DNA of 63,937 bases, filler included, from Jimgerdemannia flammicorona (lineage: Eukaryota): NCBI GenBank assembly GCA_003990765.1. It is 3 parts of 3 records of this genome, joined end to end, with 100 filler letters (N's around TTAATTAATTAA, not from the genome) between each part and the next. Parts side by side here need not be neighbours in the genome. Positions count along the whole stretch, not along the records: positions 42,697 to 63,937 come from RBNJ01001499.1; 2 more parts are not named here. One strand, written 5' to 3'. The position numbers were made by a program, and so were the translations under genes. Under the pieces are notes generated by a model. It saw only the letters and a program-made list of their open reading frames with translations, did no database searches and was not told the origin of the DNA. Positions 2,252 through 63,937 of this stretch are shown piece by piece. How positions within the stretch are numbered: the first letter of the stretch is position 1; each line of letters opens with the position of its first letter.

Positions 2252-3796
2252 TCATTGTTCATTTCTTACACTCATAAGCCTTTCCAGAAACTTCGAGTGC
2301 GACATCACTGGCGACTGGTCCAAGCCATCGCTGCTGCTCTTGAACTCGAGTCTGCGCGAGCTCGACTTCGTCAAGACCACCGACGGGGTATCCTGAAATG
2401 GCATCGAGAACGATTCAGTAACATTACATAATTATGACTTGTCGCATCGTGAGCGTTGACTCTCGACTCACCTTGATAGGACTCTCGCCGTGATTCCATA
2501 ATGTCGACGTTAGTGGTGTCATGTACTTCGGCGTTGGCTGATCCATCATGGATTGCACCCGTTGCCGAGTAGGCGTCATAAAGCCGTTGACATTGGGCGC
2601 GGGTTTTGGGCGCCGTGGCGAGTTCGGAATTCGCAAGTTTGTTGGCATGGGTGCGCGAGGAACGAGCAAAATGCCTTCCGCAGTTTTCCCCTGAATGCAC
2701 ATGGAGCATAAAAAAATGAGTTAGAGAAATCAGAAACGGTACCGTGGAGGATATAAAGGGTCATACAAAATCACCGATCGCTCACATTGGACTTCGCTGC
2801 GTATAGTACGTCCTTGACATTCGGCAAAAAAATCTTGTTGTAATACTGGACAATGTCTGTGTGCGGTGCGCCTTCGCTAATGTATACATTCCTAAATATC
2901 TATATCATCGAATAGATATTGGAGTTAGTTTCTATGTTCAACGCAAAATATATAGCACTTGAGAGTTAAGGATATAAATTTGTATCAGCTCACCTCGCCC
3001 ATATACTGTGGCTGTTGCCGATACGCTGAAACGATCTTGTTGAATGGTACGTTTAACCCATTGAGTTTGGAAACACCGAACACAACGCACATCATAACTA
3101 AGTCTGTATGCCGGCGCTGGAGCATCCGAAGCTTCAACTCGTTGTCCAGCGTCCAGATAAGTACATCCCAACCCTGTTTTAGATTCGTAGGGGACGTTAG
3201 ATTCAAAAATATTGACTAGAAAATTTGTGCTCGAACACGATTCTCACCTGTCGTATCACTGTCTCTGGAAGCATTAATGTCTTCGACAAGGCCAACAACC
3301 GTGTGTGTACCATTCGATAGAGCTTACGGAAGAACAGATTCAGGGGTTCGATCCTAGTCTTGGGTTTGATCATCATGCTATTGCCTTCCTGTCCAGGATC
3401 TTCGGATGCCATCGAGACCGCCACTTCATAACAGAAGCCTGATGTCCGTTCCGACATGTCTAATAGAACTTGGGCTTGACGGAAGAATAGAATAATTGTG
3501 CAACAATAAATCAGCGTGAAATCTTGGTCGGTATAACTATATCCTTTATGTCGCGACTCTACATACATACCTTGAGCAGTCATACCTCCTTGCTGAGCAA
3601 TTTCAGAATCAGTACGCAACAATGTGTAGAGCGGATCCTCTTCCCTCCAAACCTCAGACTCGAGAATTCTTTCTTCGATTTCCTTCATCCGCCTCACGCA
3701 CGGCCAGGGCAACTATAAGCAAGAATTTGCATCTAATCATTACTTGATTGAACACATTCACTGTACCCAGCCAATAAAACATGAGGGATGAAGAAG

Positions 3797-3838
<42 letters not shown>

Positions 3839-22314: not shown

Positions 22315-22367
<53 letters not shown>

Positions 22368-35276: not shown

Positions 35277-35354
<78 letters not shown>

Positions 35355-41765: not shown

Positions 41766-42596
41766 CTACACCAACGCTGACCTCTTTGCGATTGCGAACC
41801 CGACGACGGCAAACATTGCAAACACGCCGAGGATCCAAAAGAACCACACGAGGTCATCCTGGTCGCGGCCAGGAACCTTAACGTTCATGCCAAACAGACC
41901 GGTAACAAGGTTCATGGGCACGATGACGGTGGCGAAGACAGTAAGGCGCCCGACGACGTCGTTGGTGACGCTCGAGGTCTGCGTTAGCTCGATCGAGATC
42001 TGTGCCAGGTAATTGGAGTGCGAACGCGCCAGGATCGTCTCGTAATGGTTGAGGTTTTGAACCATCGTGACGATGTGGTCTGGTGCGGGTTCCGGTGTAC
42101 TTGTACTTTAGTGGATCGAACAAGTGACCAAACTACAAAGAAACAATCTCCGAGCGAGATAAAAAAAAAAAACGCACCGCACCTTGAATATCCCCCAGAT
42201 AGAGGGCAACATTATGGTGCATGGCTCTTTTATGCGCGTTTATCGGCGCACTCGATCCGCCCACTCCCGCCCCCGCCTCCAACCCCATCTCGTTGGCAAC
42301 CTCGAATCTCTTCATTAGACCCTTGACAACGTCTGCCTTGGTGCTGAGTAGCCTGAGCAGCTGCATGACCTTTTTACGGCAGTGTCCGATGCGGCGGAGC
42401 ATATCGGACTGCTCGGACTCACGCAGCAGCAGCACGAGATCGTCGATGGAGTCAACCTCGAGTTCAATCTGTTGAATCAGCGGCGCGAACGAATCTGTGA
42501 TGTCATCGATCAGCGCGTAGTTGATCCAGTCGGGGGTCACCGTGATGAAGTCCTTGAGCTGGCGGATGCGCTTGCGAACCTTATGGGGGTGGGGGG
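41766..42596 (-). CDS. CorA-family Mg2+ transporter (ALR-type), 3' portion; truncated by the linker
   Basis: VTPDWINYALIDDITDSFAPLI, EQSDMLRRIG, ALYLGDIQ/DHIVTMVQNLNHYE, PMNLVTGLFGMNVKVPG (GMN signature). One GT-AG intron. Confidence 0.93.
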
Positions 42597-42696
42597 NNNN
42601 NNNNNNNNNNNNNNNNNNNNNNNNNNNNNNNNNNNNNNNNTTAATTAATTAANNNNNNNNNNNNNNNNNNNNNNNNNNNNNNNNNNNNNNNNNNNN
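42597..42696. other. Artificial contig linker (N44-TTAATTAATTAA-N44)
   Basis: Identical structure to 21254-21353. Confidence 0.95.
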
Positions 42697-44522
42697 GGGT
42701 GTCCAAGAGGTGGATGTGGAGGGAGCTCGGGATGCTTCATGCTTGGGTTCTTCTTTCTTGGTCCAAGTCCTTTCCTTATTGTTGAATTGCCTTCGGGGCA
42801 GAATTGGTCCAGCTGTTAGGATTTACTTAACCATAGTCTTGATTCTTGCTAGGCACCATTGTTGGTAATCACAACCAACTGGGCGGCCTTGTTCTCGGAT
42901 TTTTCTAGTAAGCCATTCAGGCAGAGCATCGAATAAATGGTCTGCTCTTGTACCATTTCATGCTTCATCATTGGCAATGTATCCTAGGCCAATAGTGTTC
43001 AGGAGTGACTCGAGTTTTGTACAGAAGGTTTCAAATTCTTCTTTGCCATGTATATCAAATTTGAGGTTGTGGAGTTTTACTCAAGATTCAGCAATCATGG
43101 TTTCGCTGCAGTATTGAGCAATCATGAGTTGTTTGAGTCCAGGGGCTGCAGGATGGGCTCCATATCCTGGGGCATTGTTTGCTGCATTCTGAGTAACTAC
43201 TGCAGATTGGGTATCCCATGTGAGGAGTTTTTCAGGAAGGGTTCACCACCATTCTTTGGCAGGTCCTTGGAAGAATGTAACAACTCGGCGGACATAGGCT
43301 GTAGTTGTAGCAAAGAGTTGTTCCAGGGTGTGGTCTTGATTGTTTGTCAGAATGCAGTCAGCGACTCGCTCATTAGTCCATTGATTGGCTTCAAAGTTGG
43401 TGTCAACTACACTAATGAAGCTTTGGATTTCTTGTGCAGTACCATTGAAGATAGGTAGGCTCAGATTTTTAGTAGGTTGGGTCTGTTCAGCTAAGGCAGT
43501 AATGGTTGCTGCCATTATAGCTACTTGGGCTGTGAGGTCTAGAATCTGTTGGTTTGCTATGTTGATTGCTGGAGGCAGTTGGACTGCTGGTAGTGGTGTT
43601 ACTGGTACTACTTGAGGTACTGGTGCAGAGTGTGATGGGGTTCTTTGGGTCTGTGTAAGTTGCTGGAGTAGTAGTTGTAGGTCTGGAGTGAGGGCTTGAT
43701 AGATAGCTGTTTGTTGCTGTGTAGGTGTATTCTGTTCTGATGGATGTGTGTCTCCTTCGGTGGTGTATCCGGGATTGAATTCGGTGAGATACTCCTCCTC
43801 TTCTTCAGTTTGGTCCCCGTGTAATTGGGTTTGCTCAGCATCAAAGTAGACAGAATCAGTTGTATATCTGATTTCAGACAGACTTAATTCAAAGTCAAGT
43901 TCAGGTTCGGTATTGATTTCAGATTCAGGTAGGGCTGTAGCAGGGCCTGCTTCAGGTTTGGGGTCAGGTAGTTGATGAAGAGTTTCTCTTGCTTCTTCCT
44001 TAAGGATATGGCGGGCCTTGCTGTTCTGAAATCGGTAGTATAAGGCGGTCTTGGTTCTGGTGCGATGAAAGTCGGTAGAGTTGAGCTACTTGGCTACAGA
44101 GGCTTGGGCTTTGTGAGGAACTAAGACTAGAAAGACTGCTGCTGGTTGTCCTAGATCGCTCGGATTTGTGGAGCTGACAAAACTCTTATTGAGAAGAGTA
44201 AAGAAGGCTTCAATAAGACCTTCTTCATCTTAACTTACTGGGTGTAGTGCAAGGAGTTCGGTGAATAGGGTTTCGCCTATTTGCTGGTTTAACTGGAGTA
44301 CTTCTTTCTTTGAATGAAGTTTATCCCACTTGTTGCAGGTGTGGAGGTCAAATTGTCCTTATACGTCAGGTTCAATTCTCTCCAGATTGTTGGATGGTTC
44401 AGGATAAATTCTAGTTCAGAGGTTGGACTTTATACCAACTTATAGGAATTCGCAGAAGGGTTTGTAGTGGGGTGAGGAAGCGTCTTGAAGCGGAATTGGA
44501 TTATAAACCGCTGCTACCAAGT
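42697..44522 (-). mobile_element. Element D (family 2 Ty3/Gypsy): PBS and decayed gag, cut by contig end
   Basis: PBS TGGTAGCAGCGG follows the LTR end at 44523. Gag (LSLPIFNGTAQEIQSFISVVD..FFQGPAKEWW) is near-identical to the gag of element C. Confidence 0.88.
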
Positions 44523-46586
44523 TGTAAGAGGGTTACTTTTTAGGATAACCATTACATAGTTCTGGACAGGTTTTCTGGAAGTTCTGGATATTCTGGAAGA
44601 CTGTTTTCTTATGGTCAAGATCAATTTCATATGGAGTACGTCCTCTATGCTTATTGATTTCAAGATCAGGTTGATGTCTCAACCCAAGTCCTTTTTCGGA
44701 CTAGTTCTGGATGTTCAGGATTTTCCGTATTTCAGGAAGTTTAAGAAACTAAGACCAGCTTAGTTGAATTGGCATATCGCTGCAGACAATACCCAATTAG
44801 GAAATTTCGTGATGGGGTTAGGAGTAGGACCTAATAGAGAGCGGATTTACTTAAGAGTGGTTTGTGGGTTATTAAATAGATTTATTTGCTATTCATGATA
44901 TTGCTATACTAGGAGTAGTTGTGTGAAGGGGTATTGTGGGGAAGTGCTCAGGAGTTGTGTTTGGATTGTTCAAGTCTGAGATTCTGAGGTCTGGGGGAGG
45001 GGGTATTTATACTAGTGAGAGGCTATCTGGACTATGCTAGATATAGATGTAGTACTTAGTGCCTTGCTGAGTTGGAATACAGTCACGTAGTACAAGTGTG
45101 ATCTGATATGTCAAGAGATCGTCTGACTGCTGAGTCAGTTCACAGTCATGTCGTACAATGCTAATCTAACTATACTATGACTGTTAGGCTATTTATGGTT
45201 TAGGCACTGTCTGGGTAGTCTTCGATGACATCACTATCGATTGCATCATCTCAGATGAAGTAGTCATCTAGGAAGAGTGGTTTGCGGATTACTTCTCCTT
45301 GTTGGCTGAGGTAGTAATACATTGGGACTTCATCTCCGTCCCATAGGATAGCATCATCTGTTTCATATGCTGGATAAGGTGTTGGTGGGTAAAGGATGGA
45401 TATATTATCTTCGCTTTCATCGGATTCACTGTCTGCATACCTTCTATAGGTTACAGCACTATGAGTCACAGGGTTGTAGTAAGCTGGCGGCTGTGGTTCA
45501 TGTTGCTTATACTCAAGTGGTGGAGTTGTTGGTTCGATCTCGAGGGTTGTCTGGAGGTATAGATTGTGTTCTCCGGTCTCTTCATTGTAATTGAAGTAAT
45601 TGAGGGTGAATGCGGGTTGGTATTCGTGCCAGTGGTCATTGTCCCAATAAGTCTCGTATGTGGTTATGAACTGTTGTAAGTTCATTAGCAAGGTTGGCAG
45701 TGTGATCAGGGTTGGTAGAGATTCTTGGCTGGAGATCATATCAGCATCAGAGGGATCATTGTCTTCTGCTTCATCTTCATCGAAGTGGATTATATTGTAG
45801 ACGTCTTTCATGGCATATCCAACTTGGGGCATTTGCAGGATATAATCGTCAGAGTGTGAGAAGGTTCTGTCTGTGGTTTCAACATACTCGAGGTACTTGT
45901 GGTTGAGTTCTTGTATCATATCATCGATTTGGCTATAGGACAGAGTAGCAACCATTTCACTGGTAGTGACTTGGAGGCAGGGAATAAAGGTGCTGTACTC
46001 ATAAAAGAGTTCTCAGTGTTTGTAGACGATGAGCTTCTGGTGTTGAGACATCTGAGTAATGTCTGTGTCATGGTGGTGTTCGACTATATCTTCCAAGAGG
46101 CGGCCGATCTGGTAGTAGCTTGAGATTTGTCCGATTCAGTGGACCTCATTAAGCATGTTCAGGGCATTCCATCGGGCTTCACAAAGTAGAGGAGTGCTAG
46201 GCTATGGATATTCATAAGGGGCAGAGGGGGTGTGGCTCGGTTGACAATGGCATTCCAAATGTCAGCGCAGATGCAGTTGTAGATCTTGGTGGTCATGTTT
46301 GTATATGTTCAGAAGTTGTGGTTGTTGTTTGTTTTGGTTCTCTGTTTCAACGTGTCTCAGTGCTCGGTATATATGCATTTGATCCTGATTGGTAAGATTC
46401 CATTTGTGTGAATCTTGTATTCCATGACTTCATATTGACTCAGCTTTGTGCACTGTGACTTCGGTTTGACTCAGCTTTGTGATCAGGCAGGTAATTTCCA
46501 GATTTGTTCAGAGGTTGCATGTGATTTTGGTGGCTTGTTCAAAGTGTGATATGTGATTTCAGTAGCTTGGGAGTTGTGTGCTTACA
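44523..46586 (-). repeat. Family 2 LTR (2064 bp), serving as 3' LTR of B and 5' LTR of D
   Basis: TGTAAG..CTTACA termini, preceded by PPT AAGAAGGGGAGAGT (46587-46600) and followed by a PBS. TATAAATACCC at 45001-45011. Homologous to 60772-62245. Confidence 0.9.
45251..46296 (-). pseudogene. LTR-embedded accessory ORF (about 348 codons ancestrally; frameshift and stops)
   Basis: Homologous to 61031-61798. The 234-aa C-terminal part is open; the 5' part has a 1-bp deletion and TGA stops. Confidence 0.8.
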
Positions 46587-47086
46587 ACTCTCCCCTTCTT
46601 AGCTTTCGACGTCCTTGTCAGAGCCTTCTAATTTTGTTCTAGTACTGTTATATTGTTTAGGAGGTCAAAAGTTTGGTGAAGTCCATTTTTCTCAGAAAGT
46701 GGCATGCTCGTAGTACAGTTGCCTAACATGTTGGATTCACACGTTAAAGAGTCATGTATTTGATGCTATGCGCTGGAAGTGATTCTGACATCATTCACTG
46801 CTGGAGAATTTCCTCTAAGGAATCTTCTTAAATGTCTATGCCTCGTTTCCCACCAGTGGTATGGGGAGAATAGACTTGCTTTCAGTTTTGCTATTTTTCC
46901 AGAGGGTCGGTATTCTTGTCTTGTTTTGCTGAGTTCTTGGTTTTGTTCATGATAATTATAGTGTTCAGAAGGATAATATATAGTATATACTGATAGGTAT
47001 CAGAGTATTTAGATTTCAGTTATTCAGGGAATCGTATTCCTGAACTAAGTTGGTAGTATTCTGAAGGTTGGTCTTGGGTTCCTATG

Positions 47087-47915
47087 TGTAATAGAACGAA
47101 CAGATGGGACATGACAAACGATGAGCGATCACGTGACCTGGCGAGCGATGACGTTATCATACAAACGAAGCGCTACATATGAATTACGAACGATGCGAAA
47201 TGACATAGAAAACGATATCCAGCTTATCCCCAATAATCGGTGCCGCAGCCACAGTTGCCACAGCAGCTGATTATTGCCTAGTAATTGAGGTCCTGATCAC
47301 AAAGTTGTTTTTGCCAAAAACCACCTGACAAAGGTCGCGATCACAAACCTCATTATAGTTACCAAATTAGTCACTCATACTTAGTCAGAAATCGCAGACC
47401 AACTTGTATAAATACCCCCCAGTTTCCATCTAAAATAAAGCAGTTTTAGTTCAGTCCTTGATATAAGAATCAAGTCCCCCCCACACACACACATTCCCCT
47501 GAGTCTTAGTAATGACACCTAAGTGACTCTAGTGTTTCTGACTAAACTCCAGAAGCCTAGCTAACTTCTGCCAGAACTGAGACTGGTATATAAATCCTCA
47601 AAGACTTAAGTAAACCCATTGAACCTGAACTCCAAGGCGAATTCAGTCTGTGCACAGCAAAGAACAAGAGCCTCGAAATAGGGCACAAGAGAAAGACCTT
47701 TGAAAGATAAGGCACACAAGAGAAAGACCTTTGAAATAGAAGGCAAACCAGAAAGACCTTTGAAAGATAAGGCACTGCTGCTACAACTACTTTAAGTGAG
47801 CGCTTCCTCAAACCGAAGGCTTCTTGGTACACATTGTGTACTAAGTCCCTAAGTAATAGTCCACTTCCCTAATTATCCAAAGGATAAGAGAGGGGTAGAA
47901 GTGAGAGTTATTACA
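47087..47915 (+). repeat. 5' LTR of element A
   Basis: TGTAATA..TATTACA termini; TATAAATACCCC at about 47407; three ~30-bp AGAAAGACCTTTGAAA repeats at about 47680-47775. Confidence 0.95.
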
Positions 47916-47918
47916 ACT

Positions 47919-47938
47919 TGGTAGCAGCAGGTGGTTTA
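47919..47938 (+). promoter_or_regulatory. Primer binding site, initiator-Met tRNA type
   Basis: TGGTAGCAGCAGGTGGTTT 3 nt after the LTR; resembles the complement of eukaryotic tRNAi-Met 3' ends. Confidence 0.75.
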
Positions 47939-48020
47939 CCAGTCAAGAAGGCACCAAAGAATATACTCCTGAAGTTGGAACAAGACCAACCTTGGACAGG
48001 AGTAACCCCCAGGAACAACT

Positions 48021-51000
48021 GTGGATTCTCAAACCAGAGCCAGAGAAGCCCTTGCCATTAGGACCAGGTGGTTCCAGGAAACCACAGATACAGAGACCTG
48101 CCAACTTGTAATTGACCAGGCTTACAGGGATCTATACCAGGCCTTTAGGACATACCACTCAGGACTTAGGAATATTGTTAGCCACCATAGATTCTACAAA
48201 CTTCTCTGAGGACACATTGGAACCACTAGGACTCCAGAATCTACTGCTGCAGCCACCCAGGATTTTCTAGATTATATCACACCCCCTGCTGCAAAAGAAG
48301 CAGCTGCTGAGTGGATTGCCTCTGACAGATATCATCATACCTCTACCAAGACCTCCCTCTACTACAGGCTAGTTGTATACTACGCCTCTGCCATAACTAG
48401 GTACGAGAACGAGCAAGCAGGCCAACCATCCCCTACTGCTGAACAAGGAGCAGGTCCATCTACTCAGCCAGAGACTGATATTCTTTTTGAAGGACCTAGT
48501 CAGTACGAGGACGCACTATCTCATCAGGAAAGGGAGTCAGATGAAAACTCTACAGGTTACCAGTCTGACGATAGCTAACGAGAAATAGCAGGCCTAGGAA
48601 TTTACCAAGGAACCACAGATCAAGAAGATCAGACCCCAGAACCAACCCAGCCACCTATACAGAGGTTTGGTTTACCCTCCCTCACAGGACTCTTTGACTT
48701 AATATCCGGGAACCAAGTAACCCTAAGTCATACAGCACCACAACCCAACCAAGCAGAACAATTTACAGGAGAATCTACCCCAATAGGCCCACCACCAATA
48801 GTCAACACAATGGTAGATATCAATATCACAGCACTGACTACCCAGCTAGCAGCACTAGCAGGGATAGTAGGACAGATTGCTGAACAGAACAAACCAACCA
48901 AGACCTTGTGAATCCCAACATTCAGTGGAAAAAACAGTAATATTGAAAACTTCATCAATGCAGTTGACACAGGCTACCAAGCCAACCAATGGAATAATAA
49001 CCGAGTGCCTATAGGGATGCTCACCAACAACCAGAACAGCACCCTTCAACAGCTGTTTGCTACATCAGCAGCACAAGTGGAAACAGTAGCCTCATTCTTC
49101 ACTGGAACAGCAGCCGAATTCTGGCGAACCTTGGAACAACACCCAGTAACCTGGGAAGCCCGCCCTCAAGTCAATGGACAAGTACCTGGCAACAATAGAC
49201 CAGGTTGGGATGACCATGAAGCAGGCCCAGGACTCAAGGCCTTGCTACTGACCAAATTCCGAAATGCAGCCTACATATAAGAAACATGGAATAAACTGTC
49301 CCAGATGAAGTTCCACAAGAATGGTGAAGAAGATCTAGAGACCTTTGCCACCAGAATGGATGCCTATCTCAAAACCGTTGGACTTACCTACTAGGAAAAC
49401 AATTTGGCTATCAATGATACTAGAGCCAACCATCTCTTTGCAGCCCTACCAGACTGGCTCACCCAGAAGATCAAGAAACAAGGTCTTCCCCAAGGATGTC
49501 CCCACTACTCATGGTGTTTTGCCCAAGTACAAAGAAGAGCCCGCAAAATCCTTGCTGCACAAGCCCCACGAAATCAAGAACACAAGAAGGATAGCCAAGA
49601 TAGGAGAAACTCTACCAGGAGAAATGATCAAAGGAGTGACCAAAGATATGATCAAAGATATGATCAAAGGAACCAGCAAAACCCCAGAGAACCCAGACCT
49701 CCCACTGAGGATGAGAAGAAGCAGCTCCGTGAAAAGGGATTGTACTTCATCTGCAAGAAGGTAGGACATATCTCATTCAGATGCCCTGAGAAGAAGAACA
49801 GAACAGACGAACCCAGTAACCAGAACATTACTGTTATCAGAGAAGGTCTAGGAAAGAAGAACCCTGAGAATGTCATCAAAGTACAGAAGATATGGTACAA
49901 GGCTACCACCCCCACTAAGGCCCACCCAACAGATGCTGGATATAATCTCTACAGCAGTCAAGACCTCACCATTCTACCAAGTACCAATGCTACAGTATGA
50001 ACAGGGATTGCAATGCAAGCTTCCAAAGGAACATACATCTGCCTTGCTGAATGAAGCAGCCTAGCCAAAGAGTTCAACATTGGACTAGGAGGAGGAGTAG
50101 TTGACCAAGGATTTACTGGTGAAATCTGTGTCATCTTGCGAAATTTTGGAGACACATCATTTGAAGTCAAAACTGGCCAAAGAATTGCCCAAGCAATCAT
50201 TGAAGAAATCCATCAAGATCTCACCATTGAAGAAGTCCCCGAGCTCTCTCAGACAGATCATGGCAAGAAAGGGTTTGGATCTACCAACAAACCTCCCAGT
50301 CAAAAGGTCACTACCATGAAGGAAGATGATGAAAACTGGTACAAGAGAATTGCAGATAGTTATGCACCATGTGGATGATGCCCTCATTCTATTCGAATGT
50401 ACTGCATGGAACATGTTGGTGAATGCCATGCATGCCTCTCCAAAGTTTTCAAAATTCAATCCGAGAAATGCGAAGCTCAACAGACTGAGGAACCCAAACA
50501 AGACAACCCTCCTTGTGAAGGATGGAGAGAAACTGACTTTGAGGAGACTGACAGCAATTGGGACAACAATGGGGATAAAGAGCTCAATACCATCAAGAAG
50601 GAGGACAGTTGCATCAAGTTCACAGGCCAAGTCCACAGACAGAATGTCAATGTCTTGCTTGATAGCAGTGCTACCGGAAACTACATCAGCACCAAGACTG
50701 CTAAGAGAATTGGAGCCCAAAGCAGACCAACTACTGAGAAAAGAAGTATTACCTTCGGTGATAGAAAGACTGCGCCATTGACCAAGATCTGTGAAGATCT
50801 CTTGCTCAAGATTGGCAAATATCAAGAGAAGTTGGACTTCAGCATTGTAGACCTCCCAGGACAGGACATCATCCTAGGAAAAGCCTGGTTGACCCAACAC
50901 AACCCAGACATTAACTGGAGGACCAATGAGGTTAACCTGACCCACGAAGGCAGAAAGATCACCCTGACACCCCAGGAAGATACCAACCATCAAGGAATTG

Positions 51001-54000
51001 AAATCATCTCTGCCATTCAAATGAAGAGACTCTCTCGAAAAAAGGGAAATACCTACTTCATCTGTATAGTACAAGAAGTCACTGAAGCTACAAGCAGCCC
51101 AATTCCAACAGAAGCTCAAAAACTGTTTGAGAATTCCAAGATGTATTCTAGGACCCCCAAGGACTTCCACCCAAGCGCCAAATCCAACATGGAATTGACC
51201 TTATCCCAGGATCTGAACCCCCATACAAGAGTATCTACCAACTGGCCCAACCCGAGCTCAAGACCCTCAAGGATGAATTGACCAAACTACTGGCCCAAGG
51301 ATACATTGAACCCAGCCGCTCTCCATTTGGAGCCCCCATTCTATTTGTCAAGAAGAAGGATGGCTCTCTGCGAATGTGTATTGACTACAGAGCCCTCAAC
51401 AAAATCACCATCAAGAACTAGTATACCTTGCCCAGGATTGATGAGTTGCTACACCAAATTTTCAAGGCCAAGACCTTTTCCCTACTGGATTTGTGAAATG
51501 GTTACCACCAGATCCTCATTGATGAGAAGGACATAGAGAAGACAGCTTTCCGAACACAGTTTGGACACTACCAGTTCCGAGTCATGCCTTTTGGATTGAC
51601 CAATGCACTAGCAACATTCCAGTATCTGATGAATGACATCTTTGGACCACTCCTCAACATCTGTATCCTTGTGTACATTGATGATATACTAATCTACAGT
51701 GAGACAGTAGAGCTACACTACACCCACCTCAGACAAGTACTGACCCTTCTGCGAGAACACCAGCTCTATACCAAGATGAGCAAGTGTAAGTTCTATCAAG
51801 ACCAGATCGAGTACTTAGGATACATCATCTCTGCTGAAGGTATCAATGTGGACCCCCGAAAGGTATCAGCCCTCAAGGATATCCCTATCCCTACTACCCT
51901 CAAGCTGCTCCAGCACTTTCTGGGTATTGCCGGTTATTACCGAAGGTTTATCCAAGGATACTCTGCTATTGCAGCCCCACTGACCAGCCTGGCCCGCAAA
52001 GGAGTGAATATCAAAGCTGAATGGACCCCCGAATGCACCCTGGCTATGGACCATCTCAAAAGACTCCTTACTGAGGCCCCAGTGCTGATTGCACCTGACC
52101 CTACCAGACCATTCACTCTGACCACAGATGCCTCTGACATTGCTATTGGAGCAGTGCTCAGCCAAGAAGACTGCCCAGTGGCCTACCTTTCCCAGAAGCT
52201 CAAGCCAGCTGAGACCCGGTATACCACCCATGAGAAGGAACTCCTGGCTATTGTCACTGCACTCCAGGAATGGTGCCATTTCCTCCTAGGACAGCCATTT
52301 GTGACCTACACTGATCACTATGCACTGCGGTATATTCACACACAGCCTATGCTGACCCACAGACAAGCCTACTGGATGGAAATCATTGCCAACTTTGATA
52401 TGGAAATCAAGTATATCCCAGGCAAAACCAACTGTGTGGCTGATAGTTTCTCCAGATACATGGAAGATGAACTTGTCTTCATGGTCGAGGTAATTAGAGA
52501 CCTCACCCAGATGATCAAGGAAGGCTACCAGCAAGATAGCCCCCTTACGAATTTCCTTCAATTCTGCCAAGACCCAGAAGCCGAGGTCCCAGAACCCATG
52601 AGACAAATGGCCAAGAGATTCACCTACCATGATGGACTTATTTATAGGGACTATGACAGAGTGGTTGTACCCAACAATAATACTCTGCGACTCAAGATTA
52701 TGCAGGAACTCCATGATACTCCTGCAGCAGGATACTTTGGTTTCGAAAAGACCTACAACCTCCTCTCAAGAGAGTTCTATTGGCCAAAGATGACCAAGGA
52801 TATCGAAGACTTCGTGGCCTTATGCAAGATGTGCCAAAGGTTCAAAAGTGGTAACAAGCTACCAGCAGGACTCCTGCAACCCTTGCCTATCCCGAGTCAC
52901 AACTGGCACCAGATTGCAATGGACTTCATTGTCCAACTCCCCAAGACCAAGGCAGGATGGAATGCCATAGTGGTATTTGTGGACTGCCTAAGTAAACAAG
53001 CCCATTTTGCACCCACCAAGACCACTGCTATAGCACCAGAGATTGCTGAGATCTTTCTCAACTAAGTATTCAGGCTATATGGCATGCTTAGCACTATTGT
53101 ATCTGACCGAGATGCCAAGTTCACAAGTAACTTCTGGTAGACATTCTTCTCCCTCCATAGAACCAAGCTGAAGTTCTCTACTGCCTACCACCCTCAGACT
53201 GACAGTCAAACTGAGTGAACCAACAGGACTCTCAAACAGATGCTTAGCATCTTCTGCTGTTATAAGCAAAATGATTGAGACAAGTATCTAGCCCATGCTG
53301 AGTTTGCCTACAACAACAGTCAGCAAATCTCTACCAAGAAGACTCCATTCTTCCTGAACCATGGTCAACACCCTAGGACTCCTAGTACTACTGCGAAATC
53401 AGCAGTCCCAGCAGCCCAAGACCTGGCCGAGAGCATTTCTGACCATATGCGAATGACAAGAGATGCTCTCATAGAAGCACAAGACTATCAGATCAAGTAT
53501 GCGAACTTGAAGTGAAGAGAAGCCTCCTACAATATTGGTGATATGGTCATGCTTAGAACAGACCACCTCCACCCAGACACTCTGGCACAACAACTAGCCA
53601 AGAAACTCCATGCTAGAAGAATTGGACCCTACAAGATTGTGGAAAAAATCAGCGAAGTTAACTATAAGTTGCAACTTCCTCACAATATCCAAATACACCC
53701 AGTATTCCACATCAGCCAATTAGTGGACTACCATGAGAACCCATTCTCTGAGTGTACAGTTCTACCACCACCCCCAATTAGGATCAATGATCATGAGGAA
53801 TTCAAAATCGAGGAAGTACTTGACCACAAGGTCCGCAAATATCCCAAAACAGTCAAGCAGTTTTTCCTGATCACGTGGAAGGGTTACCCCACCCATGACG
53901 CCACCTGGGAAAAAGAAGAAGCCCTAAAGAATGCACACGAAGCTCTTCAGGACTACAAGGAAACTCTCACTCCCCAGGAAAGAAAGGAACTGCAGCTCTA

Positions 54001-54001
54001 G
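48021..54001 (+). pseudogene. gag-dUTPase-PR-RT-RH-IN-chromodomain polyprotein of A (many in-frame stops, a frameshift near 51130)
   Basis: YFICKKVGHISFRC knuckle; AGYNLYS..GVVDQGFTGEI..QRIAQ..GFGST dUTPase; LLDSSATGNYI; VYIDDILIYS; TTDASD; HDTP..GYFG..CKMC; GPY and HPVFH; FLITWKGYPTHDATWE. Confidence 0.93.
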
Positions 54002-54644
54002 ATTTTGGAACATACAGTGAGCAGAAGGATACTACATATCTTATCCGGAAATATATAATACCAAACATTGTGCAAAAAGGAATACTATGGATAACCAACA
54101 AGAAGATACCTGAGCAAAAGAATAATCTAGTACAGTACAGCAAAACACATTTGAACAACTCCATTTCACGCCATCTGTGTCATCTCTGCTGGATGATGAT
54201 GGATGCTTCATGTGAAATTTAGGAAAGCTGACAATGTCGAAACCAGTCTAAGCCCATCCACGTGACAGATATTATTACTAGGAATTGCCTCGGATTACAA
54301 GAAAAGTCTATTTCTGAGAGGTTCGAACCCCCAGCCATGACAATGGGAGCCCTCGCCCTAGACAAGGATGGCCAGTCCTCGTAAATGTGCCAACCAGACA
54401 AAAAAAAAGTGGACCAAGACCTGTTAACCCTGTGTAACCACAACTACGGGTGATGAGATCTTTGAAATCAGGATTTTCTCATGTAATCAGCACATGCTCC
54501 GCTTACAGCACAGGTCATGCATTTTGCCAGAAAGCATGACCAATGGAAGGTCACATCAGATGGGTGAATAAGTATAAATACCCAAGACAAGAATACCCCA
54601 CAACTCTCATCCCCCTTTCCTCACAAAGAAAAGACAAGACAAGA

Positions 54645-55454
54645 ATGCCTGCTACCCGCCGCCAAACTGCCCGCCATAGCCAACCCCTCCCAAGCCAGAT
54701 TGACCGCCTCTTTGGACACATCCAGGTTGCTATCCAAGAAAGGAACCACTGCTCAGAGGCCCTTAACCTCTCCAGCTAGGATCTAGGACACTATGTTCTT
54801 AACCACCATGAACTTATCGAAAGGGCCTACCTTGCTATCAGCCACCTAGAGATCTGGCATGAATACGAGATTGGCCATCAACTCCTCCAATGGGCAAAGA
54901 ACCTACCCACAGATCAAGTCTCTAATTGGACTCACCTAGACAGACACGAGCAAAGACTTGCCAAGAAGGTCCATCAAATCATGCGCCATGCCCCCTTCGC
55001 GATCCCCAACCTCAACTATATATAACTAAAGGACTTCCAGAATCTCTCTTTCCCCAAGGTCGATGCCCTAGAAGTCAAGGTCACCCAAGAAGCCAACTCC
55101 TGGATTGTCCTCAAGTCTACTGACTGCGAACCCTACTGGAGCCCCCTCCTTAATAACAATCCTGACCAATGGCTCCAAGGTCTCTCTGACCTCCTTGAAG
55201 GACCACCTATCTAAATGGATATTCCTAGGCATGAAGATCAAGAGCCCTACTTGGATGGCCCCAACCGCATCAGATGGAGAACCCCTACACCAGCACCTAT
55301 TCCAATACAAGAACCATTTGCAGACCTCATTGACTTCTCCATCCTGGACAGCGAGCCATCTGCAACCACCACCCCCCCTGCCCCTGAGGAAGATTTCCCA
55401 CCTTTCTCTCCCCTGGTTCTCAATTTCTCAATCAACAAGGACGTTGATTTCTAA
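54645..55454 (+). pseudogene. Accessory ORF between integrase and PPT of A (269 codons, 3 in-frame stops)
   Basis: ATG 54645 follows TATAAATACCC (54573). One frame to TAA 55454, with stops at 54777, 55023 and 55212, each explicable by a single transition. Confidence 0.75.
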
Positions 55455-55465
55455 GGGGGGAAGGA
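55453..55465 (+). promoter_or_regulatory. Polypurine tract of A
   Basis: AAGGGGGGAAGGA directly before the TG of the 3' LTR. Confidence 0.9.
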
Positions 55466-56294
55466 TGTAATAGAACGAACAGATGGGACGCGACGAATGA
55501 TGAGCGATCACATGACCCGGCGAGCGATGACGTCATCATATGAATGAAGCGCGATATATGAATTATGAACAATGTGAAACGACGTGGAAAACGATATCCA
55601 GCTTATCTCTAATAATTGGCACCGCAGCAACAGTTGCCACAGCAGCTGATCATTGCCTAGTAATTGAGGTCCTGATCACAAAGTTGTTTTTGCCAAAAAC
55701 CACCTGACAAAGGTTGTGATCACAAACCTCATTATAGTTACCAAATTAGTCACTCATACTTAGTCAGAAATCGTGGACCAACTTGTATAAATACCCCCCA
55801 GTTTCCATCTGAAATAAAGCAGTTTTAGTTCAGTCCTTGATACAAGAATCAAGTCCCCCCCACACACACACATTCCCCTGAGTCTTAGTAATGACACCTA
55901 AGTGACTCTAGTGTTTCTGACTAAACTCCAGAAGCCTAGCTAACTTCTGCCAGAACTGAGACCGGTATATAAATCCTCAAAGACTTAAGTAAATCCATTG
56001 AATCTGAACTCCAAGGCGAATTCAGTCTGTGCATAGCAAAGAACAAGAGCCTCGAAATAGGGCACAAGAGAAAGACCTTTGAAAGATAAGGCACACAAGA
56101 GAAAGACCTTTGAAATAGAAGGCAAACCAGAAAGACCTTTGAAAGATAAGGCACTGCCACTACAACTACTTTAAGCGAGCGTTTCTTCAAACCGAAGGCT
56201 TCTTGGTACACATTGTGTACTAAGTCCCTAAGTAATAGTCTACTTCCCTAATTATCCAAAGGATAAGAGAGGGGTAGAAGTGAGAGTTATTATA
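55466..56294 (+). repeat. 3' LTR of element A
   Basis: Colinear 829-bp copy of 47087-47915; terminal CA mutated to TA. Confidence 0.95.
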
Positions 56295-59200
56295 CCATGT
56301 TGCATCATGAATCAGGTATCCTTTCCATTTGACAAGGTACTCAGGGTGGTTCTTGTGGCCACATTTGTTGAGGATTTGTTCAACTTTGTATTCTTCTTGG
56401 TTATTAATAATAACAGGTGCAGGTGGTTCAGTGGTTCGGTTCGGGAATAGCTCATTGTCATTGTCATTATATCACTTGAGACGTTGGACATTGAAGACTG
56501 GGTGAATCTTAATGGTGTCTGGTAGCACCAATTTGTAGGAGGTTGGAGAGACTTGTGCAATGACTTCAAATAGTCCTATGAACTTGCTGTTCAGCTTTGT
56601 GGATGGTCTGTGCTTGAGGTTGTCAACTCGGTATCCTCGGATGTCTAGCAGAACTTTCTCCCCAGTATCAAAGGTTTCTTCTCGGCAGTGTTGGTTAACA
56701 TACTGTGACTGTTGTTCTTGAGCTCGCGATAAATTCTTGATGGCAATCTGGCTTAGATTGCGCATTCAGAGTAGGAATTCTTCAATAGCTTCAACTGTAG
56801 AGGGTTCTTCAGTGGTTCGGATGAGTGTCAGAGGAGTATTTGGGTTTTGTCCAGTGTTGGTGAAGAATGGAGTTATTCCAAGAGAGGCTTGCTTGCTATT
56901 GTTGTAAGCAAACTTGACTGCAGTGAGGTGTTCATGCCAATCATCTTGTCTGTAGGAAACATAGTTCCTTAGAATTTGTTCTAGCGTTCGGTTCATTCTT
57001 TCAGTTTGGCCATCTGTTTCAGGGTGAAAGACTGTGGATAGTGCAAGTTTCATTCCAAGGTGCACATGGAGGGCTTTTCAAAAATGGCTGGTGAATTTCG
57101 GGTCTTGGTTACTAACAATGATCTTAGGAAGACCATGATAGTGGAAGATGTTGTCAAACAAGAGTGTGGCTATGTCTGGTGCTGTTGCAGTGGTAGTAGT
57201 TAGCACAAAGTGGGCTTGTTTGCTGAGATAGTCCACAAAGACAATGATTGCATCTTTTCCATTCTTGGTTTGGGGTAGTTGTATAATGAAGTCTATAGAA
57301 ATTTGTTCCCAATTAGAAGATGGTACCGGGATAGGGTGGAGTAGACCAGGTTTTGCTAGTGTTGAGAACTTGTTGTATTGGCAGGCATCACAGGAAGTGA
57401 TGTAGGTCTTGAGCTGATCTGCCATGTGGGGCCAATAGAAGTTTCGGGAAATAACTTCATAGCATTTGTCAAATCCTAAATGTCCAGCGGTAGGTGCATC
57501 ATGACATTCAATTAAAATGGTCCTTCGGAGGTCTCAGTTGTTTGGAACATACAATCTGTCCTTGTAGTAGATTGCATTATCCTTGAGTTGGTATTGATGG
57601 TACCGGGTATACTTGTTAGCATCATCACTATTCAGAATTTCTCGGAGTGCTTGAGCTTCCTTATCATCAGCACATGCTGCAATAATTTTTTCCATTATAG
57701 TGTTGGTAACCAAGGTGAGAGTTTGGATAACTTCTTCAATTGGTGGTCTTGAGATTGCATCAGCAACAATATTTTCCTTGCCAGGGTGGTACTGGATTTC
57801 GTAGTCAAAGTTGGTGAGGACTTTCATCCATCTGGCTTGCTTTTGGGAAAGAGTAGCCTGGGTCTTGATGTTGACTAATGACTTGTGGTCAGTTAATACG
57901 GTGAAGTGTGCTCCTTCTAGATAGGGTCGCCATTTGATCAGAGTGTCTACAATGGCTAGCATTTCCTTCTTGTGAGTTACGTAGTTGATTTCGGCATTAT
58001 TGAATTTGCAGGAGTGATAGGCCACAGGGTGTCCTTCTTCCATGAGTACTGCTCCAAGAGCTAGGTCAGAGGCATCAGTAGTAACTTCATATGGTAGGGC
58101 AGGGTTTGCCACTTGAAGTACTGGAGTGGTTATCAAGGCATCCTTCAGTGCTTGGAAGGCTGTATCTTGTTCGGGTCCTAATTTACAAGATTGTTAAAGT
58201 CTTTTTCTTGTTTTGTAGTCCAGGGCTGTTCTCCTTTCTTGTTGTGCTTAGTCATTTGGGTTAGAGCAGTAGCAATTTTGGCAAAGTTAGCAACAAATCG
58301 CCTGTAATAGTTTGCTAATCCCAGGAATAACTGGAGGTCTTTCAGTTTCTTGGATCTGGACCAATCCTTGATTGCGGAGATTTTTCTGGGGTCCACTTTG
58401 ACTCTATTTGGGGTGATGATGTGTCCAAGGAATTGGATTTCCTTCAGGAGGAATTCACACTTGCTGAGTTTTGCAAAGAGTCGGTTTTCTTGGAGTTTCA
58501 GTAGTACTAGTTCAAGGTGTTCGAGATGTTCCTCCAGTGTTTTGCTGAAGACTAGAATGTCATCAATGTAGACAACAACGAATTTGTCCAGGTATGGGTG
58601 CAGAATAGTATTCATAAGGGTCTGGAAGGTTGCTGGAGCATTAGTTAAGCCAAAGGGCATAACCAGGAACTCAAAGTGTCCATAGCGGGTTCGGAAGGCT
58701 GTCTTGTAGATGTCTTCTTCTTTTATGGCAATTTTCCACTAGCCATTTTGCAGGTCAAAAGAGCTCATGAACTGTGGGTTGGTGAGCCTATCAAATATTT
58801 CATCGATTCTCGGTAGTGGGCAACAGTTCTTGATGGTTTGTTCATTGAGGTCATGGTAATCAATACACATTCGCAGGTCTCCTCCTTTCTTGACAACAAA
58901 GAGGACTGGTGCACCGTAGGGTGATACACTGGGTCTGATGAATCCTTGTTCTAGAAGTTCATCAATTTCTTTCTTGAGTACATCAATTTCTCTCAGAGAC
59001 ATGTGGTAGATTGACTTGAAGGCTGGCTTGGTATCTGGGATGGTCTTGATGGCATGGTCTACTGCTCGTTTAGGAGGTAGGCCTTTCGGTAGTTTCTTTG
59101 GAAATATATCTATGAATTTCTGGAGTAGTGGCCTGATGTGGCAGTCAACTTTGGAAAAGTCTTCTTCAGAGTTCTCAGGTTCTCCTTTGAATGGGTGGAT

Positions 59201-59859
59201 GGAGATGGCAAAAAGAGGGCATTTCTTGGCCAATTTCTTGAGTTGTAGTTTGTTTATATGAGTGATATTTGGTCCAGGTTCACTAGAGTTGAGTGGGTCT
59301 TTTTCGCCTTACAGCTTGAAGTTGTGGCATCCTTTCTTGATGGTCAGAGAGTGGTTTACCCAATCGATCATGGGGTCCCAAGAATGATCTCATTATCAGG
59401 AAGTGGTACGATTTGGAGGGTAACATGTACTCAGTAGTCACCAATTCGGAAGGGCAGATTGCGGACTTCTTTGCTAATAACATGTAAGGTTCCATCAGCT
59501 GTTGCAACTGCTTGAGTTTGTTGTACTGGAGAGGTGAAGACCTTGAGTCTGTTGGCTGTTTCTTCATTGATAAAGTTACCTGAGGCACCACTGTCTATCA
59601 TAATCTTAACAGGTGCTCGGTTGACAAAAGCTTTGAGTGTAAGCAATTTGTCAGATTCAATGGTAGTGATTTTGGTTGTAGGAGCTTTCCTTCTGTTGGT
59701 TCTTCTTTGAGCCAGTTCATTGACACAAGAGAAGCAATCATCAATCATTCAGGAAGAGTACATTCCAATACCATAGGGGCATTGGCCACTTAGTACATAT
59801 CTGTCTTCTATTTTCTTGTAGAATTGTTCTTCTTTGTTCGCAGTAGGTTGGGCTGGGGC

Positions 59860-60280
59860 CTTATTTGATGAACCAAATCCTTTGGATCCTCGGATGGTGG
59901 GTAGTAGTTCGGAGACTTCCTTGACTGTCAGGGTTGACTCGATTTTCTCGAATAGGATCTGAGCAATGCAGAAACCTATGGGGATCTTGAAGGGTGTCCA
60001 ACTGTGGTTTCGGATGAGGACAATAATTTCGCCTATATAATCTTCATCAATGACTCCTCCTTCTACTGAGAGTCCTTTCAATGCTAGGCTGCTGCGACAG
60101 CATATTCTTCTAACATGTCCTTCAGGAATTTGGATGCTGATTCCTGTATAGACTTGCTTGACTTCTCGGTTGGAGACCATAGCTTCTTTGGCTGCATATA
60201 GGTCATATCCAGCTGCTTTTTGACTTCCTTTGGTTGGAGCTTTAGCAGTTTGTCTTAACTTGACAAAGTCTAGTATTCTG
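59860..60280 (-). CDS. dUTPase domain of element B
   Basis: APTKGSQKAAGYDLYA, RSSLA, GGVIDEDYIGEI, IAQILF and RGSKGFGSS (motifs 1-5). Confidence 0.92.
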
Positions 60281-60771
60281 GTGGTCAGGTTATTGAGGTG
60301 GTGCAGAGTGGTAACAGTTACTCATGTTGCTGTTCAGGGTTTTTGGTTGGGGTAGGCATTGGCCATGTGTCCTATCTTTCAGCAATAGAAGCATGCTCTG
60401 CTTCTTCTAAGTTAATTTCTTTCTCCTTCAGTGAGTTTCTTGAAGGTACTCGGCTGGGTGGGTTCATGATTTCTGGGTGTCCACGAAGTGGATGTTGAGG
60501 GAGCTCATGATGCTTCATACTTGGGTTCCTCTTTCTTGGTCCAAGTCTTTTCCTTGTTGTTGAATTGTCTTCAGGGCAGAATTGGTTCAGCTGTTAAGAT
60601 TCACTTGACCATAGTCTTGATTCTTGCTAGACACCATTGTTGGTGATCACAACCAACTGGGTGGCCTTGTTCTCAGATTTTTCTAGTAAGCCATTCAGGC
60701 AGGGCATCAAATAAATGGTCTGCTCTTGTACCATTTTGTGCTTCATCATTGGCGATATATCCTAGGCCAAC

Positions 60772-62245
60772 TGTAAGCGCACAACCTCCAAGCCACAGAA
60801 ATCACACATCACCCTCTGAACAAATCTGGAAATTACCTGCAAGATCACAAAGCTGAGTCAAACTGAAGTCACAGCGCACAAAGCTGAGTCAACACGAAGT
60901 CACGGAACACAAGATTCATACAAACAGAATCTTACCAATTAGGACTACATGCATATATACCGAGCACTAAGACGCGTCAAAACAGAGAACCAAAATAAAC
61001 AACAACCACAACTCCTAAACATACACAAACATGACCACTGAGATCTACAACCACATCTGCACTGACATTTGGAATGCCATTGTCAACCGAGCAACACCCC
61101 CTCTGCCCCTCATGAATATCCATAGCCTAGCACCCCTCTATTTCGTGGAAGCCCGATGGAATGCCCTGAACATGCTTAATGAGGCCCACCAGATTGGACA
61201 AATCTCAAGCTACTACCAGATCGGCTGCCTCTTGGAAGACATGGTCGAACACCACCATGATACAGACATTACCCAAATGTCTCAACACCAGAAGCTCATT
61301 GCCCGCAAACACCGAGAACTCTTCTATGAGTATAGCACCTTTATTCCCCACCTCCGAGTTACTACTAGCGAAATGGTTACTACCCTGTCCTATGGCCAAA
61401 TCGACGACATGATACAAGAACTCAACCACAAGTACCTCAAGTATGTTGAAACCACAGACAGAACCTTCCCACACCCCGACGATCACATCCTGCAAATGCT
61501 CCAAGTTGGATACACTATGAAGGATGTCTACGATATAATCTACTTCGATGAAGATGAAGCAGAAGATAATGATCCCTCTGATGCCGACATGACCTCAAGC
61601 CAAGGATCTCTGCCAACCCTGATCACACCGCCAACCCTGCCGATGAACCTACAACAGTTCATAACCGCCTATAAGACTTATTGGGACAATGACCATTGGT
61701 ACGAATACCAACCCACGTTCACTCCCGATTACTTCAACTACAATGAAGAAACTGGAGAACACAACCTATACCCCCAGACCTCAGAATCTGAGACTTGAAC
61801 AATCCGAACACAACTCCTGAGCACTTCCCCACAATATCCCTTCACACAACTACTCCTAGTATAGCAATATCATGAATAGAGAATAAATCTATTTAATAAC
61901 CCACAAACTACTCTTAAGTAAATCTGCTCCCTGTTAGGTCCCACTCCTATCCCCATTACGAAATTTCCTAATTGGGTATTGTCTGCAGCGATACACCAAT
62001 TCAACTAAGCTGGTCTTAGTTTCTTGAACTTCCTGAAATACAGAAAATCCTGAACATCCAGAACTAGTCCGAAAAAGGACTTTGGTTGAGATGTCAACCC
62101 GATCTTGAAATCAATAAGCGTAGAGGACATACTCCATACGAAATTGATCTTGACCATAAGAAAACGGTCTTCCAGAATATCCAGAACTTCGAGAAAACCC
62201 TTCTAGAACTACGTAACAGTTACCCTAAAAAGCAACTCTCTTACA
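60772..62245 (+). repeat. 5' LTR of C (1474 bp, internally deleted)
   Basis: Homologous to 44523-46586 but lacks a 560-bp segment. Confidence 0.9.
61031..61798 (+). CDS. LTR-encoded accessory protein of unknown function (255 aa, C-terminus lost by deletion)
   Basis: Open ORF wholly inside the LTR, preceded by two TGAGTCA sites (60854, 60885) and a TATA-like CATATATA (about 60952). Confidence 0.8.
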   Translation: MTTEIYNHICTDIWNAIVNRATPPLPLMNIHSLAPLYFVEARWNALNMLNEAHQIGQISSYYQIGCLLEDMVEHHHDTDITQMSQHQKLIARKHRELFYEYSTFIPHLRVTTSEMVTTLSYGQIDDMIQELNHKYLKYVETTDRTFPHPDDHILQMLQVGYTMKDVYDIIYFDEDEAEDNDPSDADMTSSQGSLPTLITPPTLPMNLQQFITAYKTYWDNDHWYEYQPTFTPDYFNYNEETGEHNLYPQTSESET

Positions 62246-63937
62246 ACTTGGTAGCAGTGGTTTACAATCCAATTCTGCTTCAAGATGCTTCCTCACCCCA
62301 CTACAAAACCCCTCTGCGAATTCCTACAAGTTGGTATAAAGCCCAACCTCTGAACTGGAATTTATCCTGAACCATCTGACAATCTGGAGAAAATTGAACC
62401 TGATGTACAAGGACAATTTGACCTCCACACCTGCAACAAGTGGGACAAACTTCATTCAAAGAAAGAAGTACTCCGATTAAATCAGCAAATAGGCGAAACC
62501 CTATTCACCGAACTCCTTGCACTATACCCAGCAAGTCAAGATGAAGAAGGTCTTATAGAAGTCTTCTTTACCCTTCTCAACAAGAGTTTTGTCAGCTCTA
62601 CAAATCCGAGCAACCTAGGACAACCAGCAGCAGTCTTTCTAGCCTTAGTTCCTCATGAAGCCCAAGCCTCTGTAGCCAAGTAGCTCAACTCTACTGACTT
62701 CCACCATACTAGGACCAAGACTGCATTATACTACCGATTCCAGAACAGCAAGGCCCGCTATATTCTTAAGGAAGAAGCAAGAGAAACCCTTCATCAGCTA
62801 CCGGACCCTGAACCAGAAGCAGGCCCTGCTACTGCCCTACCTGAATCTGAAACCAATACCAAACCAGAACTTGACTTTGAATTAAGTCCATCTGAAATCA
62901 GATATACAACTGATTCTATCTACTTTGATGCCAAGCAAACCCAATTACACAGGGACCAAACCGAAGAGGAGAAGGAGTATCTCAGTGAATTCGATCCCGG
63001 ATACACCACCGAAGGAGACGCACCTCCATCAGGCCAGAATACACCTACACAGCAACAGACAGCTATCTATCAAGCCCTTACTCCAGACCCACAACTATTA
63101 CTCCAGCAACTTACATAGACTCAAAGAACACCATCATACTCTGCACCAGTATCTCAAGTAGTAGCAGTAACACCACTACCAGTAGTCCAACCGCCTCCAG
63201 TAAACAACATGGCGAACCAACAGATTCTAGACCTCACAGCCCAGGTAGCCATAATAGCAGCAACCATTACTGCCTTAGCTGAACAGAACTGACCTACAAA
63301 AAATCTGAGCCTACCTACCTTCAATAGTACTGCACAAGAAGTCCAAAGCTTTATTAGTGTAGTTGATACCAACTTTGAAGCCAATCAATGGACTAATGAG
63401 CGAGTTGCTGACCATGTTCTGACAAACAATCAAGACCACACTCTGGAACAACTCTTTGCCACTACCACAGCCTATGTCCGCCGAGTTGTTACATTCTTCC
63501 GAGGACCTGCCGAAGAATGGTGGTGAACCCTTCCTGAAAAACCCCTCATATGGGACACCTGACCTGCAGTAATTGCCCAGAATGCAGCAAACAATGCCCC
63601 AGGATATGGAGCCCATCCTGCAGCCCCTGGACTCAAACAACTCATGATTGCTCAATACTGCAGTGAAACCATGATTGCTGAATCCTGAGTAAAACTCTGC
63701 AATATCAAATTTGATGTATATGGCAAAGAAGAATTCGAAACCTTTTATACAAAACTTGAATCACTCCTGAACACCGTTGGCCTAGGATATATTGCCAATG
63801 ATGAAGCACGAAATGGTACAAGAGCAGACCATTTATTCGATGCCCTGCCTGAATGGCTTACTAGAAAAATCCGAGAACAAGGCCGCCCAGTTGGTTGCAA
63901 TCACCAACAATGGTGCCTGGCAAGAATCAAGACTATG

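Follow-up and report, generated by a model that had tools for sequence, protein, structure and literature searches.

The window analysed here is a stretch of 63,937 nt of Jimgerdemannia flammicorona DNA (assembly GCA_003990765.1), which contains, at 42.7-63.9 kb, a nest of long terminal repeat (LTR) retrotransposons that was resolved by comparison of the window with itself and by junction sequences. Two families in this nest each carry an additional open reading frame (ORF) near the 3' end: ORF3, the subject of this analysis, lies between pol and the 3' LTR of element A, and ORFX lies in the LTR of family B (Table 1). Element A, a Ty3/gypsy chromovirus with a dUTPase, is full-length but degenerate. 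Its 829-bp LTRs are 95% identical, start with TGTAAT and end with TTACA, the 3' copy ending in TA. The 5' LTR is followed by a primer-binding site (PBS), ACTTGGTAGCAGCAGG, also written ACTTGGTAGCAG, and the PBS likewise follows the LTR end in other copies, in contigs of public runs. The target-site duplication is of 5 bp with one mismatch (CTATG/CCATG), and contigs from runs X6 and X3 that join both flanks without the element confirm its insertion borders.

Pfam domains of element A occur in the order dUTPase, protease, reverse transcriptase (RT), RNase H, integrase and chromodomain, with matches along 50397-54001 to RVP_2/gag-asp_proteas, RVT_1, RT_RNaseH, Integrase_H2C2, SH3_Tf2-1 and Chromo; the chromodomain frame closes at 54001. 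This set of domains, dUTPase and chromodomain included, identifies the element as a dUTPase-carrying chromovirus, and the features that define chromoviruses are all present (protease-RT-RNase H-integrase order with a C-terminal chromodomain, LTR ends, PBS, polypurine tract (PPT) and target-site duplication). It is an old copy, in which pol is split over several frames. In both families the dUTPase domain lies between gag and protease (50136-50378, plus strand, Pfam E=1e-09; 59749-60180, minus strand, E=8.5e-25), a position that differs from the placements listed for Postia placenta elements in the consulted part of PMC2864245.

ORF3 begins about 640 nt past the integrase-chromodomain stop. An initial annotation of the window, made by eye, had described an extra ORF ending at the PPT and had aligned it with an ORF in an LTR; the ORF3 stop codon indeed abuts the tract (GGGGGGAAGGA), and the peptides quoted there are found in the frames given, at 54852-55070 in A and at 61202-61411 in B. 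The window copy is a single frame with no frameshift and with in-frame stops at codons 45, 127 and 190; it is dead, a pseudogene. However, the metagenome contig L001 contains an intact ORF of 291 codons (376-1251) that is 56% identical to it and has the layout of element A, with TATAAAAG at 296 (80 nt before the ATG at 376) and the stop followed by a PPT, GGAGGGAGGAT, and the LTR start TGTAAT. A second relative, protein P0005, came from a word-indexed protein search and is 61% identical to ORF3, with no stops over 214 amino acids. Diverged copies of the ORF3 region are also present in contigs of runs from three studies.

Between the window copy and L001, differences at the first, second and third codon positions number 82, 57 and 127, and the Nei-Gojobori ratio of non-synonymous to synonymous rates (dN/dS) is 0.20 for the 266 codons compared and falls to 0.14 in the first 207, with synonymous sites saturated. 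This ratio and the intact orthologue indicate that ORF3 is a real gene under purifying selection in this retrotransposon lineage, so that the conserved third gene proposed for element A stands, the shared layout included. A chance open frame is excluded by the same two observations, and a reading of ORF3 as either such a frame or an ordinary host gene captured once is very improbable. The only relatives found are borne by elements, L001 ending in a PPT and an LTR, and no other homologues occur among 5.8 billion and 1.84 billion proteins; apart from the broken state of the window copy, nothing was found in its favour.

Family B is represented by an internal part, element C, into which element A is inserted, and by two LTR copies, B1 and B2. 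Its LTR is bounded in both copies by the junctions PPT/TGTAAG and CTTACA/ACTTGGTAGCAG, and other copies in three runs carry the PPT (AAGAAGGGGAGAGT) ahead of the position corresponding to 60772. The second ORF of the initial annotation is thus correctly placed inside an LTR, whose ends are defined in B1, B2 and these other copies. In B1, ORFX lies between the LTR start (46586) and the LTR TATA (45011), that is, in U3, and so qualifies as a U3-encoded gene; ORF3 does not, as it ends before the PPT. A TATATA of its own lies 77-78 nt before the ATG of ORFX in both copies (60954-60959 in B2).

ORFX also has counterparts outside the window. P0006 is 92% identical to it and supports the N-terminus; P0004, an independent metagenome protein, is 65-66% identical, contains no stops and supports the long C-terminus. 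Differences between B1 and B2 number 26, 16 and 45 at the three codon positions, and the differing codons comprise 38 synonymous and 34 non-synonymous. This third-position bias indicates that ORFX, too, is a selected gene. Each complete B LTR combines a promoter motif (TATATA), an ORF of about 365 codons and a poly(A) signal (AATAAA). In B2, a deletion of about 550 nt (44998-45548 of B1 against 61771-61779) removes about 110 C-terminal codons of ORFX together with the LTR TATA box; loss of this box suggests that B2 is probably promoter-dead for genomic RNA.

Two structural peculiarities were seen in family B. Besides being the 3' LTR of element C, the B1 LTR leads into a PBS and the start of gag, giving a tandem internal-LTR-internal arrangement (44523-46600, 42697-43515, 42597-42696); the gag beyond B1 stops at two runs of N, and the arrangement may be a product of unequal recombination or, at a scaffold gap, an artefact of assembly. 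The gag of element C is cut about 519 nt into the gene at 60772-60774, exactly at the start of the B2 LTR on the opposite strand, which suggests that B2 belongs to a second nested insertion, into the gag of element C, with its far end beyond the window.

Table 1. Features of the retrotransposon nest (coordinates on the window)
Feature	Position	Strand	Remarks
Element A	47087-56294	+	LTR pair, target-site duplication, Pfam domains; inserted in chromodomain of element C
Element A 5' LTR	47087-47915	+	829 bp; TATA copy of TATAAATACCC at 47407
Putative internal promoter of ORF3	54540-54583	+	CCAAT 54540-54544; TATAAATACCC 54573-54583, 72 nt before ATG
ORF3 of element A	54645-55454	+	269 codons; ATG 54645, TAA 55452-55454
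PPT of element A, GGGGGGAAGGA	55455-55465	+	adjoins ORF3 stop codon and 3' LTR start (55466)
Element A 3' LTR	55466-56294	+	829 bp; TATA TATAAATACCC at 55786-55796
Element C, internal part of family B	60774-56295, resuming 47086-46587 past the A insertion	-	gag fragment, dUTPase, protease, RT, RNase H, integrase, chromodomain
PPT before B1 LTR	46600-46588	-	junction sequence
LTR of family B, copy B1	46586-44523	-	2064 bp; 3' LTR of element C, then PBS and gag
ORFX, copy B1	46296-45200	-	about 365 codons, one frameshift, three stops
LTR TATA of B1, exact TATAAATACCC	45011-45001	-	489 nt before LTR end
AATAAA of B1 LTR	44886-44881	-	downstream of LTR TATA
LTR of family B, copy B2	60772-62245	+	TGTAAG...CTTACA, then PBS ACTTGGTAGCAGTGG; lacks about 550 nt present in B1
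ORFX, copy B2	61031-61798	+	255 amino acids, C-terminus shortened by deletion

The products of ORF3 and ORFX are predicted from composition to be soluble and strongly acidic. Net charges in the two families range from -15 to -43, the N-terminal part being roughly neutral, and the tails of both proteins contain hydrophobic-acidic motifs. The initial annotation had described acidic, proline-rich tails for both; the C-terminal halves of both are acidic, but only that of A is also proline-rich. Its view that ORF3 is not env-like is upheld: the maximum 19-residue Kyte-Doolittle mean is 0.66-0.72 in the A family (0.72 in window A) and 0.86-1.05 in the B family (0.86 in B2), well below the values of membrane spans. 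AlphaFold2 places helices, with low confidence, in the first 120-140 residues or so of both proteins at matching offsets, and this N-terminal part is probably helical in both.

Searches for relatives returned little beyond the families themselves. Word-indexed protein searches gave one relative each for P0002 (ORFX) and P0003, a metagenome scan gave a single locus, L001, and neither protein has a relative outside its own small family in the two protein collections named above. No relative was found in viral_contigs with either family alignment, or among 43 candidates of the 'shorter' protein search with alignment A3. Profile searches of the PDB gave nothing for A3 and only matches with E of 0.24 or worse for alignment A2. 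In the ESM Atlas no usable lead was obtained: the A protein scored at best 0.89-0.92, to unnamed clusters, and recognition stayed under its usual level, one Mucoromycota cluster (0.89) being no more than a lead; P0002 had no usable match. A resemblance to DUF3102 or DUF1016_N, suggested earlier, was not recovered, as P0003, P0002, the B1 part, P0004 and the L001 ORF had no Pfam match at E up to 1 except noise.

In the genomic RNA, ORF3 and ORFX both fall in the interval between pol and R, but on opposite sides of the PPT. From the LTR start to the TATA there are 320 nt in A and 1575 nt in B; the spacer from pol to the PPT measures about 1450 nt in A and about 450 nt in C; and the distance from TATAAATACCC to the LTR end is 509 nt in A versus 489 nt in B1. 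Each element has its own extra segment, of about 0.9-1.25 kb, on a different side of the PPT/LTR-start landmark. No ORF was found in the pol-PPT spacer of element C, six-frame tblastn of the window and nucleotide comparison of the 3' ends detected no remnant of either ORF at the other element's position, and the 3' ends of A and B are alike in nucleotides only at the PPT/LTR-start junction and the LTR TATA. An origin of ORF3 or ORFX from gag finds no support in the window, since neither is similar to any other part of it.

This arrangement would be explained if ORF3 and ORFX were diverged members of one family, the module or the PPT/LTR boundary having moved between lineages. It would also be explained if two unrelated genes had been gained independently, by capture or de novo, in an insertion-tolerant pol-PPT spacer and in U3, their likeness being due to chance and composition. 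The alignment made by eye is recovered by several methods. BLASTP of the single pair gives 23.1 bits (E=0.004, 10/50 identities, 20%), and the profile-profile comparison called for in the initial annotation, made with hhalign on the two small family alignments, returns the same alignment over 70 columns, although with E=0.071 and a probability of 0.78%. Smith-Waterman alignment agrees on these 50-70 residues, and its score is matched by 13-57 of 2000 shuffles. The match is near-collinear from the N-termini (A residues 70-142 against B residues 58-127), and a semi-global N-terminal alignment, whose boundaries were picked after the alignment had been seen, is matched by 5/1000 shuffles (z=3.9, against 0.7 for the reversed control). 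Overall, the shuffle tests give p of about 0.005-0.03.

Searches that start from one family and look for the other are divided. In the six-frame window, ORFX is the best non-self tblastn match of L001 and P0005 (E=0.12-0.17); in the reciprocal search with P0002, however, the A ORF appears at E=2.3, behind chance matches. The A profile, run against 2004 real and decoy (shuffled) sequences, ranks P0006 4th and B2 7th, but B1 248th and P0004 1435th, and with the B profile the A members come only 40th to 124th among 2003. Run with P0002 on 1.84 billion representatives, phmmer missed the A family and gave four matches, two of them of the ORFX family. The other two, P0007 and P0008, were rejected: both are long repeat proteins that owe their scores to short repeated segments, and the Pfam result on P0007 is repeat-inflated noise.

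The alignment drawn by eye is thus reproducible, whereas its statistical support is marginal and within reach of chance; the assignment of both ORFs to the same protein family is unproven, since every test is marginal and phmmer with ORFX missed the A family. Common descent would also require the two ORFs to have evolved far faster than gag, which is still 47% identical between A and B (pol about 50%). Accessory ORFs can do so: in the consulted part of PMC3485330, they fall to about 10% similarity while gag-pol stays above 60%. The modules are moreover parallel, with a TATA 72-80 nt before the ATG, a probably helical N-terminal part and an acidic tail. Shared descent of ORF3 and ORFX is therefore a serious possibility, if one short of an even chance. 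Independent gain, which we judge evenly balanced, is favoured by the similarity statistics, which are within reach of chance once account is taken of how freely pair and region were chosen, and by the varied unrelated ORF3 types reported for related LTR elements of bdelloid rotifers in the portion consulted of PMC5408684. Against it stand the parallel architecture and a collinear similarity that is weak but consistent.

The motif before ORF3 was said in the initial annotation to be that of the LTR promoter, and TATAAATACCC is indeed identical in both LTRs of A and in the B1 LTR. Exact matches in the window number four (54573, 47407, 55786 and 45011-45001) versus 0.82 expected, and 2/100 shuffles reach four. 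In L001 a TATAAA is kept at -80, even though the surrounding spacer is only about 66% identical. The proposal that ORF3 is independently promoted is supported insofar as a TATA 72-80 nt before the ATG is kept in L001, while transcription of its own is suggested by the CCAAT/TATA motif. A live alternative, though a doubtful one, is that the LTR-driven transcript would be spliced to a subgenomic mRNA from which ORF3 is translated, in the manner of retroviral accessory genes, the TATA-like motif being incidental. A C/T-rich tract followed by AG lies between TATA and ATG (54610-54640), and a C-rich tract is found at the same place in L001. Against splicing stand the constant position of TATAAA in the diverged L001 spacer, the identity of the internal 11-mer with element A's own LTR TATA, and the TATATA at the same distance before ORFX in both B copies.

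A further feature lies upstream of the ORF3 TATA, in the spacer that follows the chromodomain stop. Between 54230-54572 and L001 1-295, short blocks such as GAGGATGGCCA, CACAGGTCAT and ATAATCAG are conserved despite saturated synonymous sites; these blocks may be cis-acting elements.

Taken together, 54573-55465 is probably a third-gene module of the dUTPase chromovirus A, with its own promoter and a product predicted to act in trans. ORF3 would be transcribed from its own CCAAT/TATA as a subgenomic mRNA whose 3' end, formed at the LTR polyadenylation site, would be common with that of the genomic RNA. ORFX would similarly be transcribed from its own TATATA with a 3' end in common with the genomic RNA, and could be expressed from any complete LTR. 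The product of ORF3 or ORFX would then act in trans as a regulator of the element. As a tentative first guess, which we consider somewhat improbable, it might be a transcriptional activator or an anti-silencing factor, since the tail that comes after the helical N-terminal part is acidic and hydrophobic-acidic; a role as structural protein, envelope or enzyme is unlikely.

Several points weigh against the module as described. The functional guess is based on composition only, and a classical DNA-binding domain is disfavoured by the lack of basic character in the N-terminal part. The AlphaFold2 models are unusable (mean predicted local distance difference test scores of 34.1 and 36.3), and the known sequences are three for the A family and four for the B family, so that the profiles are shallow. 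The ORF3 copy in the window is itself a pseudogene, and splicing of the genomic transcript is as possible a route to expression of ORF3 genes as an internal promoter. A more far-reaching scenario, which we regard as unlikely, would be that a fast-evolving accessory family of fungal dUTPase-chromoviruses crossed the PPT/LTR boundary, being present as a unique internal gene in one lineage and, in the other, making B LTRs, solo ones included, self-contained coding transcription units (TATA, ORF and poly(A) signal); the acidic product would act in trans on element expression or host silencing.

Retroviruses offer two parallels to such a module. The sag gene of mouse mammary tumour virus (MMTV) is encoded in the U3 of a retroviral LTR, and Sag is a type II membrane glycoprotein. 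ORFX resembles sag in lying wholly within U3, and hence in both LTRs and past the PPT on the genomic RNA, but has neither a hydrophobic segment nor sequence similarity to it; ORF3 of A lies outside the LTR. In spumaviruses, an internal promoter drives tas/bet. The likeness here is a 3'-end accessory gene with its own TATA, and the acidic C-terminal part of ORF3 is like an activation domain. The promoter here is, however, a conserved motif only, sequence similarity is absent, and DNA binding and transactivation could be ascribed to ORF3 by analogy only.

Accessory ORFs of retrotransposons are also comparable. In the part consulted of PMC3485330, ORF0 of the rice elements Retrosat2/RIRE3/RIRE8 shows about 10% similarity versus more than 60% for gag-pol, and a non-synonymous substitution rate (Ka) of 0.26 versus 0.08. 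Like the ORFs described here, it is an accessory ORF confined to one lineage, in elements with long LTRs, and evolves much faster than gag-pol; it differs in lying upstream of gag, in plant elements, and bears no sequence relationship to ORF3 or ORFX. Novikova et al. 2010 (PMC2864245) depict fungal chromoviruses with an 'add. ORF of unknown function', and bdelloid rotifer elements carry varied non-env ORF3 types and also a dUTPase, according to the sections consulted of PMC5408684. These are like ORF3 in being third, non-env frames after pol in a canonical gag-pol element, with a dUTPase in the same elements. The comparison with the fungal ORF is with its figure-legend description only, and the ORF3 protein has no detectable relative in any library searched. 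A search of an open-access library for LTR-encoded or additional ORFs in fungal retrotransposons found neither these proteins nor a gene in the U3 of such an element. Extra ORFs after pol are already known as a kind, and ORF3 and ORFX are two real orphan accessory genes.

Extra genes of LTR retrotransposons are the raw material for retroviral accessory and envelope genes, and few of those that are not env have, to our knowledge, a known role. Here, two related chromovirus families in one genome each have at the 3' end an orphan gene under selection, which precedes the PPT in one family and lies in U3 in the other. They offer a compact system for the origin of such genes, for their movement across the LTR boundary and for the LTR alone as a protein-coding unit. 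Should a role in regulating transcription or silencing be established for the proteins, fungi would have in them a new class of host-interaction factors encoded by transposons. A boundary-crossing family, if true, would be a retrotransposon counterpart of retroviral regulatory genes; should ORF3 and ORFX be unrelated, they would cleanly illustrate how genes are gained repeatedly at one permissive site.

Soil metagenomes and runs of a named organism contain thousands of diverged contigs of these elements (53000-63937; runs X1, X3, X6 and X8, with 8780 contigs in X1). Transitions make up most of their differences, and C>T and G>A are in excess in X6 and X8, a pattern that would fit deamination of methylated repeats or of repeats targeted by repeat-induced point mutation. 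Three places among the host genes of the window, 3787-3867, 22315-22367 and 35279-35352, have long homopolymer or simple A/T-rich repeats in common. Just outside the nest, at 41766-42065 on the minus strand, the C-terminus of a CorA-like magnesium transporter (GMN motif region) was identified by eye from the translation.

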